This document shows, piece by piece, positions 1 through 11,838 of a stretch of DNA of 64,000 nucleotides. Position 1 is the first letter of the stretch. Each line of letters begins with the position of its first letter. The notes below the pieces were generated by a model. That model was given only the letters and a program-made list of their open reading frames with translations. It ran no database searches and was not told the origin of the DNA. A program made the position numbers and the translations under genes. This DNA is from a virus (Duplodnaviria > Caudoviricetes). Location: positions 1 through 64,000 of the IMG/VR virus record IMGVR_UViG_3300033121_000370. The stretch is one strand, 5' to 3'.

Positions 1-61
1 CAGCAGTGCCGGAGCCGCTTGAACCGCCTAGAATTGGTACTAGAATACCCTCAGCACTCAT
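1..61 (-). CDS. 5' part of a probable virion gene running off the window edge
   Basis: ATG at 61-59 directly after the stop of 63..389; reads MSAEGILVPILGGSSGSGTA, open to the edge. Confidence 0.4.
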   Translation of the reverse strand, partial: MSAEGILVPILGGSSGSGTA

Positions 62-62
62 G

Positions 63-389
63 TTAGACTACCCCGTAAACTACAGCAGCCCCAGTTGTGC
101 CTGTCTTGCGGAAGCGCACAGCCGAGAACTGGCCAACGAAGGCTCCAGCAAAGATAGGGTCAGTATAAGTAGATACTGTGACAATAACCGTTACAGTGGC
201 GGCAGTGCCATCCTGGTTATAAATAGGTTGGTTCGTTACTTCGAAGTAGACCGAATCCCCAGTTGTAAGGGTTCCGGTGAAGGAGCGCACAGTACCACCT
301 GAGTCGTTACGCCAGTCAAGAGGATACCAGTTTCCTGTAGCCGAGACGCTGGCTACGTCAAGAAGGGTCTGTCTGTTTAGAATTGTCAT
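63..389 (-). CDS. hypothetical virion protein
   Basis: 108-aa Thr/Gly-rich ORF in the late operon downstream of the capsid gene. Confidence 0.55.
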   Translation of the reverse strand: MTILNRQTLLDVASVSATGNWYPLDWRNDSGGTVRSFTGTLTTGDSVYFEVTNQPIYNQDGTAATVTVIVTVSTYTDPIFAGAFVGQFSAVRFRKTGTTGAAVVYGVV

Positions 390-582
390 GGTCTGGGGTA
401 TCTCTTTCTCTTTGTACGAACTTAATGTACTCCTGCATGAGGTCTACAGTCATCTTTGCAAGAGTAGTTCCTGGATTCTCCTCTCCAGGATTTAAACTTG
501 GGCTGAAGTAAGCGCCTAGGGATGGATACCCTAGGACACTTACAACATAGTCTTCAATAGTCTTAGGCGCGGGTACCGGCAT
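358..582 (-). CDS. small hypothetical protein
   Basis: ATG at 582 overlaps the end of 563..1069 and fills the gap between two genes. Confidence 0.3.
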   Translation of the reverse strand: MPVPAPKTIEDYVVSVLGYPSLGAYFSPSLNPGEENPGTTLAKMTVDLMQEYIKFVQRERDTPDHDNSKQTDPS

Positions 583-1069
583 CAAACGGCACACCAAGGG
601 TAATGGCAAAACGACCAGCACCAGCAGTAAGCGAGTTCATGGTTGCGCTCTGGGCAGCAGTTGCCGATACCAATACAGTATACGAAATAGTCGTATCAGC
701 CGTTAGCGGAATACCGAAAGTAGCTGTTCCGGCATCTGTCGCCCGGTATAGAGTACCAGTCTTGAGAGCCACGTTGGAGATAACAGCAGTAGCAGTAGAG
801 CCTACGCCCACAGTCAGGTTAGTAGTACCCACTGAGGTACCTGTCCAAAGAGCAGTACCTAGGTATGTAATATCTTCAATACAGTAGCCAGAGGGAATAA
901 CAAAGAGGTTACCGGAGGCTGAAGTAGCTGCACCAGCAACATTAGCATAGCCAAGGGATACCTGGAAAGTGACGGGGATATAGCCAGTCTGTGGGAAGGT
1001 GTAGCCTGAACGAGTATAGGCCTCTTCAGTCAGAAGGCGGGCATTGAGCGGAAGTGTAAATGTTGACAT
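563..1069 (-). CDS. probable head decoration/fibre-like virion protein
   Basis: 168-aa Ala/Thr/Gly-rich beta-type sequence in the post-capsid position. Confidence 0.55.
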   Translation of the reverse strand: MSTFTLPLNARLLTEEAYTRSGYTFPQTGYIPVTFQVSLGYANVAGAATSASGNLFVIPSGYCIEDITYLGTALWTGTSVGTTNLTVGVGSTATAVISNVALKTGTLYRATDAGTATFGIPLTADTTISYTVLVSATAAQSATMNSLTAGAGRFAITLGVPFDAGTRA

Positions 1070-1131
1070 TTCGAGGGAATTTCCTAGTAGAGAGAGGGCT
1101 TTGTGCTACCTTGCACCATAGCCTAACCGTT

Positions 1132-1190
1132 ATTATAGCATACATAAGAAAAGAGGCCCGAGTTTCCTCGGACCCCTCTCTTATAACACA
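1132..1190 (-). promoter_or_regulatory. two extended -10 elements around a hairpin
   Basis: TGTGTTATAAG (1190-1180), stem GAGGGGTCCGAG..CTCGGGCCTC, then TGCTATAAT (1140-1132). Confidence 0.55.
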
Positions 1191-1203
1191 GAATCGTTGT
1201 GAG

Positions 1204-2010
1204 TTAGACTCCTGTACACTTTAACTTATTATTAGCCCTGTGCCATTTACTCTTACAACTCAAAGAACAAACTAGTTTATCGGGGCGTAAATCAGAAATG
1301 TCCTTACTGCACCACTTACAAGCTCTTTTCTCTTCTGGGTTATGAGCATACTTAGATTCGTATTTACGCCTATAGTGCTTTCTGCAAAGGCCTTTTCCAT
1401 AGTGTTTTTCACCACACCCGTCAACTGAACATACCGTAGTAGAATTAGTGTCTACTTTGTCTCTTAACACTGGCTTTTGAAACATGGGGACTGCTGAGGT
1501 AAACCGAATAGAAGTGGAACTTCCTATTTTTTTACCTAGGTAATCTTGGACTAAATCTCTTTCTTTGTCTGTTAAAACAGAGTTGTTTAAGAACCTATTA
1601 TACAGGTATAAAGAATGCTTAGCATCTGAAATATCAGTAGCTACGCTATAGTTTACGGTTCTATTATTTAACTCTATTAATTCTAAAGCGTTATGGCACT
1701 GAGTCTTTTTTATAAGCAGGTACGGCTCAATATCTAGTAGTAGTTGCTTTACAGCGGTACTTGGACATACCCATTTGTAACAGTCCTTAGTTGACGTAAC
1801 AGAGTTATGGGTCTCTCCAGCTTTTCTGCTTATCCCTATTGAGCCTCCATATTTTTCCCTAAAAGCCTCAAGTGGAGTTAAACACGTATTAGGTACTGAG
1901 ACTACCGACTTGTATCTTACACCAAGCCTATTCTCTTTTCTTTTCTCTATAAACAGCATAATGCTGCCCTCTCCATCTATGAAAGCAGCAGCGTATTCAT
2001 TACTAATCAT
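1204..2010 (-). CDS. free-standing single-motif LAGLIDADG homing endonuclease with C-terminal Cys/His Zn-binding motifs
   Basis: N-terminal YAAAFIDGEGSI, ..PYLLIKKTQ; C-terminal CSVDGC..GLCRKH and CKWC..CSLSC. Confidence 0.85.
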   Translation of the reverse strand: MISNEYAAAFIDGEGSIMLFIEKRKENRLGVRYKSVVSVPNTCLTPLEAFREKYGGSIGISRKAGETHNSVTSTKDCYKWVCPSTAVKQLLLDIEPYLLIKKTQCHNALELIELNNRTVNYSVATDISDAKHSLYLYNRFLNNSVLTDKERDLVQDYLGKKIGSSTSIRFTSAVPMFQKPVLRDKVDTNSTTVCSVDGCGEKHYGKGLCRKHYRRKYESKYAHNPEEKRACKWCSKDISDLRPDKLVCSLSCKSKWHRANNKLKCTGV

Positions 2011-2029
2011 CTATTCCCCCAAAATAGTT

Positions 2030-2070
2030 AGGACCGAGGATGATTCCCCGGTCCCTTCTATTATAACACA
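2030..2070 (-). promoter_or_regulatory. extended -10 (TGTGTTATAAT) followed by a hairpin
   Basis: TATAAT at 2065-2060; stem GGACCGGGG/CCTCGGTCC then T-rich tract. Confidence 0.55.
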
Positions 2071-2110
2071 CATTTGGAGGCTATGTGTTATACCTTATTT
2101 TACTGGGTGT

Positions 2111-3025
2111 TTAGACCCCTGGGCTTCCTGCGATGCCTCTCCAATCTGACCAGCCAAAGCTGTACCGCTCGCGGGCCTTCATCTTCAGGTTGCCAGTGTC
2201 GAAATCGCTTTCGTTATCCTTGGTCTGTAGAGCGAGACGCTGGAAGTGCTTGAGGCTCTCCGGGATGTCGGTCTTGATGAACCATGCGTCGCTATCAGTG
2301 AAGCGATGGTTGACATGGACACCGCTCTGGAAAAGACCGAGGTCCTTCAGGGCATTGGCGTCGTTGTCGGCTGTGCCTACGCGACCATCAGACTTAAGGA
2401 TGCGGTGAACCACATAGGTAAGCTGGGGAGGGATATGTAGGCTGGTAGGCTGAGCACCAATGAGGATACCACGGTCATCCTTCATGAGCTGGATGCTGAT
2501 AACGGCATTTTCAAGTGCTGTCTCAGAGATGTCACCAGTTAGAAGGTTGCTCTGGTTGCCATCACCAATAGTGGGATGGGATGAGCTGAACAGGGCTACA
2601 CCGTCGCCGCCTAGATAGGTGGAGCTAAACCCGTTGTTCAGGATGTTAGCTGCCTTCTGCTGCTTGGATGCGGCCATTGAACGACCAACGTAGTAGGCCA
2701 TTTTCTTGCCGAGCTTCTCGTAGAGGTTATCTTCGGTCTGCTCTTCAGTGACCTGGAAGCCCATAGCAACGGTTTCGTGCTCATAGCGGGCAGTCCACGA
2801 TTCGTTAGCCGTATCGTAGAATACCGAAGCACCTTCCTCTTTGTTAGGAGCCAGGCCAAAGCCGGTCATAAACACTTCCTCTTCGAAGTACTTATCCGAC
2901 TTTTCTGTAGTAAATAGGACTTCGTGTTCGTTATCAATCGAACCGTAAGCCATGCCAAGTACCGCGTTTAGACCCGGTACTAGCTGCCGTGGAGTTGAGC
3001 CACGACTAATAGGTTGTCCTGCCAT
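2111..3025 (-). CDS. major capsid protein
   Basis: 304 aa; ISR..RQLVPGLNA N-arm, YEHETVAMGF, DFDTGNLKMKARERYSFGWSDWRG C-terminus; follows scaffold and portal. Confidence 0.85.
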   Translation of the reverse strand: MAGQPISRGSTPRQLVPGLNAVLGMAYGSIDNEHEVLFTTEKSDKYFEEEVFMTGFGLAPNKEEGASVFYDTANESWTARYEHETVAMGFQVTEEQTEDNLYEKLGKKMAYYVGRSMAASKQQKAANILNNGFSSTYLGGDGVALFSSSHPTIGDGNQSNLLTGDISETALENAVISIQLMKDDRGILIGAQPTSLHIPPQLTYVVHRILKSDGRVGTADNDANALKDLGLFQSGVHVNHRFTDSDAWFIKTDIPESLKHFQRLALQTKDNESDFDTGNLKMKARERYSFGWSDWRGIAGSPGV

Positions 3026-3047
3026 TAAATTAAATCCTTTCTAGTGA

Positions 3048-3617
3048 TTAGCCTACAGAAACTTTAGTCAAGTTCTGCTTGTTGATGAGCTGGACAAGAA
3101 CGTAGGGGTATGCGTCAGTAACAGCATTATCCGCACGGGTTGAAATGTCCAGAATCTTGACTAGACCTGTAGCTGCGTCATTGCGGCTAGCTGCCTGGAC
3201 GCGGCTGGTGGAGATGCCATAGGTAGTGTTACCTGTGCCAACAACAACGTCAAAGTTAGCGCCAACGTCACCCTGAGATACAGAACCATCGCACTGAATC
3301 TCAAAGACGCTCATTGGGTCAGTAATGACTAGAGCCTTGATTGTCTTACCAGGAGCAGCTGAAGTCCCCGCTACGAAGTAAGACTTGGGCTCACGTCCCT
3401 GGCCTTCTGGCTTGAGGCCAGCAAAGACGCCAATGGAGTAGTCGGTGCTTACAGTTACTTTCTGAATGGTACCATCGGTACCGAGCTTTACAAGGTCGCC
3501 CTTGAAGATGTTAGTGGCGTAGCTATTAGCAATAGGGTAGGTTACCATGCCGCCAATCGAGTGGCCGCTCTGGGAAAGTACGCTAATAAAACCACCATTT
3601 TTTAAAGATGAAGCCAT
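3048..3617 (-). CDS. head decoration/cement-type protein
   Basis: YPIANSYATNIFKGDLV..VITDP..FEIQCD pattern of pre-capsid head proteins. Confidence 0.6.
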   Translation of the reverse strand: MASSLKNGGFISVLSQSGHSIGGMVTYPIANSYATNIFKGDLVKLGTDGTIQKVTVSTDYSIGVFAGLKPEGQGREPKSYFVAGTSAAPGKTIKALVITDPMSVFEIQCDGSVSQGDVGANFDVVVGTGNTTYGISTSRVQAASRNDAATGLVKILDISTRADNAVTDAYPYVLVQLINKQNLTKVSVG

Positions 3618-3664
3618 CTTGGTGTTTCCTTATTAAGGGGTTAAAAGTCCTGTTTGGTGAAGGA

Positions 3665-4303
3665 TTACTCTTCTAGCAAATCTGTGTCGCCGGAGACTTC
3701 CTCGTGAATTTCTTCTGCTTTGCGCTGAGCGCGTGTAACAAAGGAACGTCTACCGGATGAGATATTACCTGGTCGAGATACTTCTGAGAGTACACCCTTG
3801 GACCTACGGAGGGTTTCCTCTTCCTTAACTTCTATTAGTGCTTCGCGCACTTCAATAGGAACCTTAGTAAGGGCAAGGTCGCCTACGGTAATGATGTCTC
3901 CATAGAGACTGTGATTTACGGGGGTATATCCGAAAGCCAGCTCAGGAGCCTCTTCTTTCGTTACGAACGTATACCCTAGTTCCAGCCAACGAGCTACATT
4001 AGCTGGGTCGTCTCGTCCGTACTCAGAAGTTTTTAACCGGGTCCAGCGCCAAGCGTAGCCCTGACGAGCTAGACGGTCAGCTGTTGCTTCCGGGATTAGA
4101 AGGACATTGGTGTAAAGAACTCGCTTCATCTTCTGCTTAAGCGCTTCTTTCAGAGCCTTGGTTGACCCTGCTCGAGTCATACCAGCTCCTGTCTTGGATG
4201 AGCGAGTGTCTGCTGCTCGTAGTTCTACAGCATCAGGTACTTCGGCAGCAATAGCGGCAGAAGTGGAGCGTTGGGGAGCTGATGTTTTTGGGGGTAAAGC
4301 CAT
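3665..4303 (-). CDS. head-module hypothetical protein
   Basis: 212-aa ORF with YAWRWTR..LELGYTFV; lies between scaffold and decoration genes. Confidence 0.6.
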   Translation of the reverse strand: MALPPKTSAPQRSTSAAIAAEVPDAVELRAADTRSSKTGAGMTRAGSTKALKEALKQKMKRVLYTNVLLIPEATADRLARQGYAWRWTRLKTSEYGRDDPANVARWLELGYTFVTKEEAPELAFGYTPVNHSLYGDIITVGDLALTKVPIEVREALIEVKEEETLRRSKGVLSEVSRPGNISSGRRSFVTRAQRKAEEIHEEVSGDTDLLEE

Positions 4304-9019: not shown

Positions 9020-11083
9020 TTACCAGTAAAATCTCTGTTTGGATACCCGAGCTTGGCGTTCATCTTCCAGTTCCTCAAGGGATACTTCCCCCTCGTAGTT
9101 CAAATAGTGGGAATCTCTCAGCCAGATAACAGCCTGGCTCATTGCGTCCACCTGGTCATCCTTATCAGTTTTCTTGCCCCCAAAGGCTTGGCACTCGTCT
9201 ATGAAGTCTTGGCACCAGATGAGGTGCATAGGCATATAGATACGCTCATCTTCAATGAAGGGCGTAGCGGAAATTACCCTGGTCAGCTTGTCTTTGTCTG
9301 GAGAGTACTCAACCACAAAGTAACCTCTGCGCCTGAGGTCCTGGATAAGACTCTGGCCTGAGGCTTTCTTCTCGATTAGCCAGGTATCTGGTACGTGGTC
9401 ATCCTCTACTTCCTGGCAGTGCTTGATAAGCTCCGGGTATTCCCATTTACCCCGGTGCTGGTCCAGGAGTACCAAACATTTGATGTCCCGTTCCGTGCCT
9501 TCCGAGTCTACCCGGCGTTGGTTAAATACGCCCCATACCTGTATAACTGAATGGTCGGCGTGGGTAGAAGTACTAAAGGCTGTATCGAGCGAGGCAATTA
9601 CGTGCTCAATCTCGCCTTTGCCATTCTTACCCCAATCCTGGAAGTGCTCAGTCTTGATAATGTTGCCATCCAAGGCAATGGGCTCTTGCTGGTACGTGGC
9701 AAGCCAATGGCTACGAGGCATACCTGTTTGCATACGCTTAACAGTATCAGTGTCGTAGAACTCAGGCCAGTAGGACTCCCCTTCAACTCCACCAAGCATC
9801 TTGGCGGCGGCCTTGTCAAGGAGGGCAGGGACCTTTACTACCTTCCACTGGCTAAGCGTAGGATTGGACTCTGCTCTATCCAAGAGCCAGCCAGCAGGGT
9901 CAAAGCAGTTATGGACTAACACTCCACCAGCTGTGAAACGGGCTGGCTCGGTTGTTAAGTCAAAGACAGAACCTGAGTACCCTTCTTCGTGGATGTAGTT
10001 TACCTTGTAAAGAAGTTTATCCCCATCAACTCGGATATACTTGCTATTTGCCCCCTTAAACTCGTAAGCTTTGTAGCCCCAATCACTGGGCCAGATGGGA
10101 GCAAACTTAATCTCATAGGCACCTATCTCGTTATCTGTTATAGCTACACCACTAGGGTGATTAAAGCGACTAGCTAGTAAAAGCTGTATCTGGTTCAAGA
10201 GTGTTAGGGATACTGAAGTTATTGTTGCCCAGTTCTCTTTTCCTTTGTTACACCCATCCCCCTGGTAGTACCCAAAGAGAAACTCCATCTGGTAACCTCG
10301 CGGTATGTGGAAGAACCAGCTTGGTAACTCCTTGTGGTGGGCTAGCTCTTTGAAGTTATTTCCTAGAAAGGAAGCTAGTTGGACTGATGAGCAACGGATT
10401 TTGACACCCCGGCCTAACTTCATAGGTGAAAGAACCGATGGTATGTTATATCTGTCTAAGGTTCTCATCACTATATCGTGGAGTTCCAGCTCATCTTGGT
10501 GGAAAGCCCAGTCGATGCGATTTCTACTTCTACCTTTGCCGCCTGAAGAAAGACATCCTTCAGCAACCCAAAGGCCAACAAGCCGCCAAAAGTCTTTATC
10601 CAGCAGGGGATTACGGCTAAACTCCTGGTTATTGGAACTTTGAAGGCCATATAGGAGGGTATACTGGTACACAGCTCCTTTAGTCTTAAGCCCCACTTTT
10701 CCTGCTATTTCCTGGTACGTCAGGCCTAGGCCTAGTAACTCCTGGAGTAGTTCTTTAGAGACTTTTCCTTTACCCCCGGTTAGCGAGGGGGGTGTTATTC
10801 TTTCCCTCATCTCAAACTTAGGCCATTTTGCCAGGAACTCTTCCTCAGTCAAATCTGGCTTGTCCAGGATGTAACCAAACGTCTTAAATCCCCAGTCTGA
10901 CGTGGACAACTCAGAGGCCTTCTTAAAGGTGTGTTTTTCCTCGTTGTGGGGGTCAGTGGGGTCAATGGTCAGAACTTGGTGGTCTGGGGTTACCTTTAAC
11001 TCAGTAGGGGAGCCAAAGAATCTAATGTGTAGGACTTCACCTGAGAAAGGTGTTTCTTCTAGGCGTGAGCTCGTACTTAGCAA
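9020..11083 (-). CDS. terL: terminase large subunit C-part: intein C-fragment with LAGLIDADG endonuclease, then nuclease domain
   Basis: TTG start; intein block B VTPDH; ends VHN|C; extein has YQQEP, SLDTAF, IEKKASGQSLIQ, DDQVDAMSQA. Confidence 0.9.
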   Translation of the reverse strand: MLSTSSRLEETPFSGEVLHIRFFGSPTELKVTPDHQVLTIDPTDPHNEEKHTFKKASELSTSDWGFKTFGYILDKPDLTEEEFLAKWPKFEMRERITPPSLTGGKGKVSKELLQELLGLGLTYQEIAGKVGLKTKGAVYQYTLLYGLQSSNNQEFSRNPLLDKDFWRLVGLWVAEGCLSSGGKGRSRNRIDWAFHQDELELHDIVMRTLDRYNIPSVLSPMKLGRGVKIRCSSVQLASFLGNNFKELAHHKELPSWFFHIPRGYQMEFLFGYYQGDGCNKGKENWATITSVSLTLLNQIQLLLASRFNHPSGVAITDNEIGAYEIKFAPIWPSDWGYKAYEFKGANSKYIRVDGDKLLYKVNYIHEEGYSGSVFDLTTEPARFTAGGVLVHNCFDPAGWLLDRAESNPTLSQWKVVKVPALLDKAAAKMLGGVEGESYWPEFYDTDTVKRMQTGMPRSHWLATYQQEPIALDGNIIKTEHFQDWGKNGKGEIEHVIASLDTAFSTSTHADHSVIQVWGVFNQRRVDSEGTERDIKCLVLLDQHRGKWEYPELIKHCQEVEDDHVPDTWLIEKKASGQSLIQDLRRRGYFVVEYSPDKDKLTRVISATPFIEDERIYMPMHLIWCQDFIDECQAFGGKKTDKDDQVDAMSQAVIWLRDSHYLNYEGEVSLEELEDERQARVSKQRFYW
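9908..11083 (-). mobile_element. TerL intein C-fragment (392 aa) with LAGLIDADG domain
   Basis: LVGLWVAEG and FLFGYYQGDG motifs; DLTT..FTAGGVLVHN followed by Cys. Confidence 0.9.
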
Positions 11084-11838
11084 TTTACCAGGTCTTCCTT
11101 AGGGAGAATGTCTTTAATGGGCTTTAGTAACCCATATTCTAATTCTACCATAGTTTCCGGTAATAAGCAATTCCAGCGGGTATTTATGAGTACAATCTTG
11201 CCCTTAGGCAGGATACGGGACTCAAAACCGCGGGGCCACCACTTGTGTACCTTCTCATTCTCTGGTTTGGAGTCAGCATTTTGCTCAGAAATCAAATCAT
11301 CGCATATCCCAAAGTTTCCTCGCTTACCGGCAATAGCGCCCCCTACACCAGCCGAGCGATATATGCCCTTCTGTTTGGTACGCCAGTGCTCTCGAGCCTG
11401 GTAGTTCTCATCCAGGCTGAGATTAGGGAATATTTCCTTGTATTCATCCAGGCACATCAAGTCCCGGATGTCAGCGCCAAAGGAGGCCGTAAAGTCTGCC
11501 GAGTGGCCTACGTGCAGAATCTGCCAGTCAGGCCTCTGGCCGAAGACCCAGGCAGGAAAAAGAATAGAACCTAGCCGAGACTTCATGGCCCCTGGAGGAA
11601 GGAAAATCATGACTCGGGCATTATCAGTCCTGTAAGCCCACTCAAGCGTGTCAGCTACCAGTTTTATGTGTTTGCCGTCTATAAACCCAGGGATGATTAC
11701 CGGGGCCATGAGCTGCACAAAGGTGTAGAAGCTGGAGCGAGCCTTAATAAGCAGAATATCCCGAAGCTCCTGGCGTACACGAAGGTCGTGCTCCAGCTGA
11801 GCCTCGATATTCATGCCTATAGTAGTCTTAGGGGGCAT
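11077..11838 (-). CDS. terL: terminase large subunit N-part (ATPase) ending in a 30-aa intein N-fragment
   Basis: FLPPGAMKS Walker A-like, ICDDL Walker B, NTRWN then CLLPET..; TAA at 11079-11077. Confidence 0.9.
   Translation of the reverse strand: MPPKTTIGMNIEAQLEHDLRVRQELRDILLIKARSSFYTFVQLMAPVIIPGFIDGKHIKLVADTLEWAYRTDNARVMIFLPPGAMKSRLGSILFPAWVFGQRPDWQILHVGHSADFTASFGADIRDLMCLDEYKEIFPNLSLDENYQAREHWRTKQKGIYRSAGVGGAIAGKRGNFGICDDLISEQNADSKPENEKVHKWWPRGFESRILPKGKIVLINTRWNCLLPETMVELEYGLLKPIKDILPKEDLVNC
11080..11169 (-). mobile_element. TerL intein N-fragment (30 aa)
   Basis: CLLPETMVELEYGLLKPIKDILPKEDLVNC is an intein block A. Confidence 0.85.

Follow-up and report, generated by a model that had tools for sequence, protein, structure and literature searches.

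The window analysed here, the first 64 kb (64,000 nucleotides) of the 72,741-bp IMG/VR virus record IMGVR_UViG_3300033121_000370, which is rated 100% complete, carries on its minus strand a large terminase gene (terL) with a 422-residue class 1 intein. The intein is inserted at the motif TRWN/C (a slash marks an insertion or splice point throughout) and is broken after its residue 30, between two overlapping open reading frames (ORFs). As judged from the sequences, the phage, which is uncultured, very probably has in its sole terL an intein that is naturally split, genuine and stable in evolution; trans-splicing and homing are the expected activities of this intein. The initial annotation had proposed that the TerL intein is naturally split in an atypical way, with a 30-amino-acid N-fragment and a full endonuclease; this proposal is supported by the conservation of the break in relatives and by the intact motifs.

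The intein spans exactly positions 11169 to 9908 (1262 nucleotides; all window coordinates refer to the minus strand), as initially annotated, and every feature described there was present. The N-fragment ORF (11838..11077, 253 amino acids) ends ..INTRWN/CLLPETMVELEYGLLKPIKDILPKEDLVNC-TAA. According to the ORF list and its translation, it comprises the TerL N-extein (11170..11838, 223 amino acids), which is the ATPase part up to the conserved INTRWN, and the N-terminal intein fragment (IntN; 11080..11169, 30 amino acids), which runs from Cys1 (CLLPETMVE..) to ..EDLVNC and is followed by the stop codon TAA at 11079-11077. The N-extein contains a P-loop-like PPGAMKS and the Walker B sequence GICDDLISE and is 99% identical to residues 1-227 of an intein-free TerL, P0004. 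The C-fragment ORF (11083..9020, 687 amino acids) starts with a TTG that overlaps TGC-TAA. In the resulting seven-nucleotide overlap TTGCTAA (11077..11083), the start codon of the C-terminal intein fragment (IntC) lies over the last Cys codon and the TAA of the N-fragment. A Shine-Dalgarno (SD)-like TAAGGAAG is located at 11094..11101, 10 nucleotides 5′ of the TTG, where the initial annotation had placed it, and AAGGA/AGGAG-like motifs precede 18 of the 43 long ORFs of the window. The frame details given there were also found: upstream, the second frame has five open codons and then, as the sixth, a TAA, and there is no X-XXY-YYZ heptamer.

The same split was found in four independent assemblies: the window (IMG/VR), contigs L006 and L010 (Logan, SRR22746111 and SRR32119620) and contig L007 (ENA, ERZ1744926). 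The intein part of the C-fragment, used as query in a word-indexed search among 5.8 billion proteins, returned P0002 (687 amino acids, 81% identical) and P0003 (682 amino acids, 68% identical). On L006 and L007 the upstream gene overlaps the P0002 or P0003 gene by seven nucleotides. L010 was found by a search with the N-fragment, and here the IntC gene again starts seven nucleotides before the N-fragment stop. Over the parts present in both, the proteins of these relatives are 65-81% identical to those of the window. IntN has 30 amino acids at all four loci, and at each of them the second frame opens with a start codon (three TTG, one ATG). The junctions themselves differ. IntN ends with ..GTA AAT TGC TAA in the window and ..TTA AAT TGC TAA in L010 (overlap TTGCTAA in both), with ..ATT AGT TGT TAA in L006 (overlap TTGTTAA) and with ..GTA TGT TGA in L007 (overlap ATGTTGA). 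The terminal Cys of IntN is conserved because its TG doubles as the TG of the overlapping start codon. The IntC ORF is intact in all three full copies (687, 687 and 682 amino acids).

Further copies were sought in several ways. Two DNA-pattern scans of viral contigs revealed none, a metagenome scan retrieved L007 again, and four matches in a scan of genome contigs were due to chance, none being preceded by TRWxC. A search for related loci with the C-fragment gave no match, and the corresponding search with the N-fragment gave only TerLs that were 42-46% identical. Three proteins from an exhaustive search appeared to be both split and endonuclease-bearing and were rejected. In P0134 a run of N in the contig creates a false split; P0126, from a bacterial metagenome-assembled genome, is an orphan intein remnant outside any terminase; and P0140 looks degenerate.

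IntC (392 amino acids) begins with the rest of the N-terminal Hint half (residues 1-75, 10859..11083), which was delimited by alignment to contiguous TerL inteins. It includes block B, TPDH, at 10990-10979 (C-fragment residues 32-35), and an AlphaFold2 model has beta strands at residues 8-68. Residues 76-160 (10604..10858) comprise a linker and a helix-turn-helix (HTH)-like segment (GLTYQEIA..YGL, 10726-10643, C-fragment residues 120-147); this region is conserved in the split copies and in contiguous relatives, and the model contains helices at residues 110-144. In a Pfam search of the C-fragment the HTH-like segment had no match; it is a predicted and probable extra DNA-binding module. The LAGLIDADG domain (residues 161-330, 10094..10603; Pfam LAGLIDADG_3, E 7.5e-11) contains motif 1, LVGLWVAEG (C-fragment residues 168-176, 10582-10556), and motif 2, FLFGYYQGDG (residues 268-277, 10282-10253). 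Residues 331-392 (9908..10093), again assigned by alignment, form the C-terminal Hint half; it contains block F at 9973-9944 and, as block G, ..GVLVHN at 9925-9908, so placed that VHN/C occupies C-fragment residues 390-393. The TerL C-extein (9023..9907, 295 amino acids) consists of Cys+1 (9907-9905), FDPAGWLL.. and an RNaseH-like nuclease (Pfam Terminase_6C, E 6.8e-13); it ends at a stop codon at 9022-9020 and is 98% identical to residues 223-518 of P0004. Pfam thus assigned Intein_splicing, LAGLIDADG_3 and Terminase_6C to the C-fragment. Intein_splicing scored 30.8 bits, under the cutoff of 35.8, because block A is absent from the C-fragment.

The residues needed for splicing and DNA cleavage have been retained. 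T32, H35, H391 and N392 were invariant across 12 aligned sequences, as were E175/G176 and D276/G277 of the two LAGLIDADG motifs. Cys1 was invariant in the alignments. All full copies have the hallmarks of a class 1 intein, namely Cys1, TPDH (TPEH in L007), VHN and, in three of three, Cys+1. The layout is that of a naturally split intein, with two ORFs that each have their own stop or start and are each fused to one extein, and both motifs, both acidic residues and a matching modelled fold identify the inserted domain as a two-motif LAGLIDADG endonuclease.

To estimate selection we compared the three full copies by raw proportions of non-synonymous (pN) and synonymous (pS) differences; dS according to NG86 was not computable owing to saturation. 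In every region pS was 0.71-0.97, which corresponds to synonymous saturation. In contrast, pN was 0.09-0.23 for the Hint halves, 0.17-0.29 for the linker and HTH-like segment, 0.13-0.25 for the LAGLIDADG domain and 0.13-0.24 for the TerL nuclease domain of the C-extein. For IntN, compared across four loci, pN was 0.10-0.22 and pS 0.50-0.77. These comparisons show purifying selection at the sequence level over all parts, including the endonuclease domain. As the pN range of the LAGLIDADG domain resembles that of the essential nuclease domain, the endonuclease evolves no faster than an essential enzyme. Synonymous saturation together with low pN furthermore implies that the split state has persisted for a long time and excludes a recent lesion.

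The split is thus almost certainly genuine and neither a sequencing nor an assembly error. The caution in the initial annotation that one missing A might have created it as an error does not hold, since the relatives carry the same stop/start overlap, their junctions differ and those of L006 and L007 contain no A-run, which rules out a homopolymer error at these two loci. It is true that all sequences are metagenomic and that in the window an AAA lies beside the break. However, four assemblies from four samples show an identical frame structure with differing junction sequences, and synonymous sites are saturated while amino acids are kept on both sides of the break, which leaves an error or a dead pseudogene with a negligible probability. 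A pseudogene is also at odds with the single copy of TerL in a record rated complete: when the 72.7-kb record was searched with the intein-free TerL, the two halves were the only matches, and a second intact terL elsewhere was dismissed on this basis. A programmed −1 frameshift or another bypass that yields one contiguous precursor for cis splicing would be compatible with the overlap of the frames, the −1 direction of the shift and the conservation of the frame break. We nevertheless consider such recoding very unlikely. No slippery heptamer or homopolymer run is present at the junction in any of the four loci, and a start codon opens the second frame in each of them. In L006, moreover, a TAG in the second frame abuts the TTG start codon on its 5′ side. 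This leaves no room for an upstream frameshift, and a shift would have to take place on the Cys codon or on the stop itself, with poor re-pairing. Transcriptional slippage and hopping were rejected on the same observations. Finally, the fragments might associate through their intein halves without splicing, leaving TerL as a non-covalent two-chain enzyme. Nothing specific speaks for this arrangement, although broken enzymes that work unligated have been mentioned (PMC2677866), and it appears highly improbable: all splicing residues are kept, Cys+1 is strictly tied to the presence of the intein while empty alleles have Thr, and a 44-kDa insert would remain inside the ATPase core at the TRW motif. 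The two products very probably trans-splice.

Structural comparison agreed with these assignments. The AlphaFold2 model of the C-fragment had a mean predicted local distance difference test (pLDDT) of 76, and its best Foldseek matches in the PDB were PI-PkoII, the TliVMA intein, PI-SceI, PI-PfuI, the D6E large terminase and I-DmoI, the latter with a target-normalised TM-score of about 0.69. A sequence search of the PDB matched PI-PkoII over residues 162-305. In an exhaustive HMMER search of 1.84 billion representatives, the closest family consisted of TerLs of about 900 amino acids that were 33-38% identical over the whole IntC. Metagenomic contiguous relatives (P0121-P0125, P0127 and P0137) have a one-piece intein at the same site (TRWH/C at one end and HN/C or S-DDL at the other) and share with the window intein the order Hint-N, HTH-like segment, LAGLIDADG, Hint-C. 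The split between ..EDLVNC and MLSTSS.. aligns opposite ..QTVLTSAGAQ.. of P0123. In the P0123 model (pLDDT 83), this place is a turn that joins strand 211-214 to strand 217-220 and closely follows a short helix (203-205). According to this model, IntN contributes two initial strands, this helix and a further strand, and the chain is broken where a hairpin turns at the surface. If a contiguous ancestor lost one base, this could have created the stop and at the same time turned an existing TTG Leu codon into a start.

The intein-free alleles and their distribution on the extein tree bear on mobility. A search with the C-extein identified P0004, a 518-amino-acid TerL that is 99% identical and intein-free. 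Its contig, L008 (Logan, SRR32548954), has 98.9% DNA identity to the window upstream and 97.6% downstream and lacks exactly the 1262 nucleotides of the intein: it reads AAT/ACG TTT (Thr+1), whereas the window reads AAT/intein/TGC TTT (Cys+1). Besides the +1 codon, the sole difference within 90 nucleotides on either side is a synonymous base at −7. Empty relatives also exist for the L007 lineage, P0005 (84% C-extein identity) and P0006 (78%), both with Thr+1. Within the clade, Cys+1 thus occurs in three of three full intein copies and Thr+1 in three of three empty alleles; the insertion site is among the most conserved motifs of TerL. In a maximum-likelihood tree of 16 C-exteins these proteins formed one clade (support 98/94), in which the window protein P0001 (split) paired with P0004 (empty) and this pair grouped with P0002 (split), while the sister branch joined P0006 (empty) to a pair of P0003 (split) and P0005 (empty). 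Split and empty alleles are thus interspersed among the exteins, a pattern that takes no fewer than three gains or losses. These data fit a long co-existence of filled and empty alleles in each phage population, a state that homing would maintain. The suggestion in the initial annotation that the intein may still home gains support, because the endonuclease is under selection, a 99% identical empty allele exists and the alleles alternate on the tree. On balance the sequences favour an endonuclease that is active in homing, with some reservation, and the element is probably still mobile.

Some observations weigh against the overall interpretation. A strong ribosome-binding signal (the SD-like AAGGAAG) is present in the window only; L006, L007 and L010 have weaker purine runs at that position. 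The known copies number only four, every one of them from an uncultured phage. Coverage of the L007 contig is low (~3.4x according to its record name), and L010 includes just the first 59 residues of IntC. The identities of intein and extein are proportional (80% versus 81% and 68% versus 65-66%), so that there is no sign of recent transfer between clades, and the presence/absence polymorphism could reflect repeated loss rather than gain. These last points lead to an alternative in which the intein, though split and able to trans-splice, has lost its mobility. The endonuclease would then be kept for another reason, for instance for folding or solubility of the large IntC, for DNA binding or for a domesticated role, and empty alleles would have arisen by loss or recombination. 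Proportional distances are indeed what vertical co-inheritance predicts, and among the searched proteins there was no near-identical intein in a distant extein background. On the other hand, the LAGLIDADG domain is under purifying selection no weaker than that of the nuclease domain, neither of its catalytic acidic residues varies, and the model of Goddard and Burt expects the endonuclease to decay once empty targets are gone (10.1101/2025.01.02.630785), while here such targets co-exist at 99% protein identity. Pure loss would in addition require three exact deletions, each accompanied by a change of the Cys codon to Thr. An immobile element therefore seems unlikely, though clearly less so than recoding or a TerL of unligated chains.

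The mechanism that we favour, a still-mobile split intein, would operate as follows. Gene 1 encodes the ATPase part of TerL with the 30-amino-acid IntN and gene 2 the 392-amino-acid IntC with the rest of TerL, and both would be translationally coupled via the stop/start overlap. IntN would dock into a partly folded IntC and thereby complete the Hint fold, after which class 1 chemistry (Cys1, TPDH, HN and Cys+1) would ligate the exteins to a TerL of 518 amino acids (about 59.8 kDa). The released non-covalent complex of the 44.5-kDa IntC and the bound 3.4-kDa IntN would be the homing endonuclease and would cut the intein-free terL of co-infecting relatives at the conserved TRWN/TFDPAGW, so that the whole two-ORF element could be copied in along with the Cys+1 codon. 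Taken as a whole, with an intein that spreads as a two-ORF unit, an endonuclease that is an IntN-IntC heterodimer, a split that arose by a small frameshift in the hairpin of a contiguous endonuclease-bearing TerL intein and was rescued at once by coupling, and a subsequent loss of the endonuclease that leads to mini split inteins of the AceL/GOS/Cat type, this scenario is tentative, and we hold it with somewhat less than even confidence. In favour of a trans-splicing TerL, split inteins occur elsewhere in the clade, as L007 and several relatives have a canonical split intein at Walker B. It is plausible that the window intein represents an intermediate in the origin of split inteins.

Natural atypically split inteins have an IntN of 15-37 amino acids and are split near the N-terminus, after beta2 (S1) or helix alpha1 (S2) (PMC13014065). 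Reported IntN sizes are 25 amino acids for AceL-TerL, 37 for GOS-TerL and 16 for VidaL (PMC13014065, PMC11766414) and 15 for PolB16 (PMC10189870), while the engineered consensus Cat-TerL consists of 30 + 104 amino acids. The large IntC of such inteins must fold around IntN (PMC11766414). Where sizes are given, IntC has 104-168 amino acids, with about 104-122 in the AceL/GOS/Cat type, and no endonuclease domain is mentioned (PMC11766414, PMC2677866, PMC10189870, PMC13014065). The window intein resembles AceL-TerL, GOS-TerL and Cat-TerL in that its host protein is a phage large terminase and its very short IntN matches theirs in size range. A possible likeness at the start of IntN is a lead only. 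AceL-TerL and GOS-TerL belong to the S2 split region (PMC13014065), and the P0123 model places the break of the window intein in the same neighbourhood. The AceL/GOS type stems from uncultured aquatic phages and the window likewise from an uncultured phage. By its 30-amino-acid IntN the window intein thus falls into the atypically split class, but it lacks the mini-intein IntC of that class (about 100-170 amino acids, no endonuclease). Judged by the published descriptions of the AceL/GOS/Cat mini-inteins, it is set apart by an IntC of 392 amino acids with an HTH-like module and a LAGLIDADG domain and by genes that overlap by seven nucleotides. The contiguous TRWH/C inteins differ from it in being single ORFs with an unbroken hairpin (..TVLTSAGAQ.. 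in P0123). PI-PkoII, PI-SceI, PI-PfuI and TliVMA combine a Hint domain with an inserted LAGLIDADG domain like the window IntC, but they are single polypeptides that splice in cis.

There is also a likeness to fractured genes (Dassa et al. 2009, PMC2677866; AceL NrdHF, PMC7891396), in that a phage gene is broken within an intein, an endonuclease is present in the locus and the halves are adjacent and co-oriented. In fractured genes, however, the endonuclease (GIY-YIG or Vsr-like) is encoded separately between the halves, and the break is nearly always at the canonical point of endonuclease insertion (PMC2677866). The GOS terminase is such a locus, with a free-standing endonuclease gene between the halves and a C-part of 122 amino acids (PMC2677866). 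In the window, the halves overlap without an intervening gene, and the endonuclease forms part of IntC. Only the Walker B intein of L007, and not the window intein, has the arrangement of a fractured gene. One review treats full-length inteins with endonuclease, mini-inteins and split inteins as separate configurations (PMC7765530), and another defines a split intein as a mini-intein that comes in two parts (PMC4760082). A recent survey of actinophages reported several unusual endonuclease placements (antisense, out of frame), not in frame in a split fragment (10.1101/2025.01.02.630785). In the accessible literature we did not find a split intein fragment with an in-frame LAGLIDADG domain; an earlier description is possible. 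From its sequence, the window intein is atypically split and endonuclease-bearing at once, and this combination is conserved and under selection.

An element that is both split and endonuclease-bearing and is stable under selection breaks the usual classification. As the split state and the endonuclease have both been kept under selection, splitting need not end the selfish life of an intein. Current models for the origin of split inteins invoke either an internal stop that accompanies decay of the endonuclease or a free-standing endonuclease gene that invades (PMC2677866; 10.1101/2025.01.02.630785). As an alternative, a break in a hairpin turn combined with stop/start coupling would suffice; if the element is indeed still mobile, such a break would offer split inteins a path of origin that involves neither endonuclease decay nor an invading free-standing endonuclease. 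Split inteins with a short IntN are sought for semisynthetic protein labelling (PMC13014065). The four natural variants of a 30-amino-acid, Cys1-containing IntN are possible tools, and IntC could be minimised by removal of the endonuclease. Annotation pipelines would label such terL genes as frameshifted pseudogenes.

A more complex arrangement was seen on L007 (positions 1-3735; L011 is the same contig), where three pieces together encode TerL. Walker B (GI/CDDLISE) is the site of an additional split intein, of the canonical type. Piece 1 ends in the IntN of this intein (about 127 amino acids). The ORF after it (846-1301) is free-standing and gives a weak NUMOD-like match to I-HmuI. Piece 2 (1286-1693) consists of an IntC of about 60 amino acids, a middle extein of 45 amino acids and the 30-amino-acid IntN of the second intein in the chain, and piece 3 consists of the endonuclease-bearing IntC and the nuclease domain. 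From these sequences L007 is predicted to be a natural tandem trans-splicing arrangement. Such a TerL, with a canonical and an atypical split intein around a 45-amino-acid middle extein, is a natural counterpart of engineered three-segment ligation.

The Walker B split intein is also present in P0005 (L009:554-1750), P0006, P0007, P0015, P0272 and P0273, all of which are empty at the TRW site. Its C-pieces start with MGILLK..YVSHN/CDDL, and its N-pieces end in an IntN that begins with CGLDTNF... P0006 carries a further contiguous LAGLIDADG intein (DFINE/C..HN/CKAFDG) and P0017 one at KKASGQ/C. Together, the Walker B, TRW, P0006 and P0017 sites amount to at least four intein insertion sites in this TerL family. 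In the window, Walker B (GNFGICDDLISE, 11309-11335) has a Cys at the exact +1 position of the Walker B intein site and no intein, and P0004 is identical in this respect; L006 and L010 have Ala at this position. The Cys could be the footprint of an earlier intein or simply mark a receptive site.

The scaffold behind the apparent split with a run of N, L012 (positions 3-2311; NCBI GCA_964423685.1), encodes a contiguous TerL intein of the same family and has another intein, ending ..LVLKN/C, at Walker B. P0126 is encoded on L013 (3001-4137; NCBI GCA_016931835.1) by an intein-like ORF of 378 amino acids that is 37% identical to the window IntC. It starts inside the Hint N-half, ends in block F and stands alone between transport genes and a large nSTAND NTPase gene. 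Its sequence suggests either a domesticated endonuclease or an orphan remnant.

Concerning the phage itself, the closest TerL among 50,697 deposited phage genomes was only 35% identical (Pelagibacter phage HTVC027P), and by this comparison the lineage is one without a close cultured relative. A Cpn10 (GroES-like) gene lies shortly downstream of an SU10-type portal gene in the related contigs L008 (5694-6101), L006 (8505-8912) and L009 (5444-5750).

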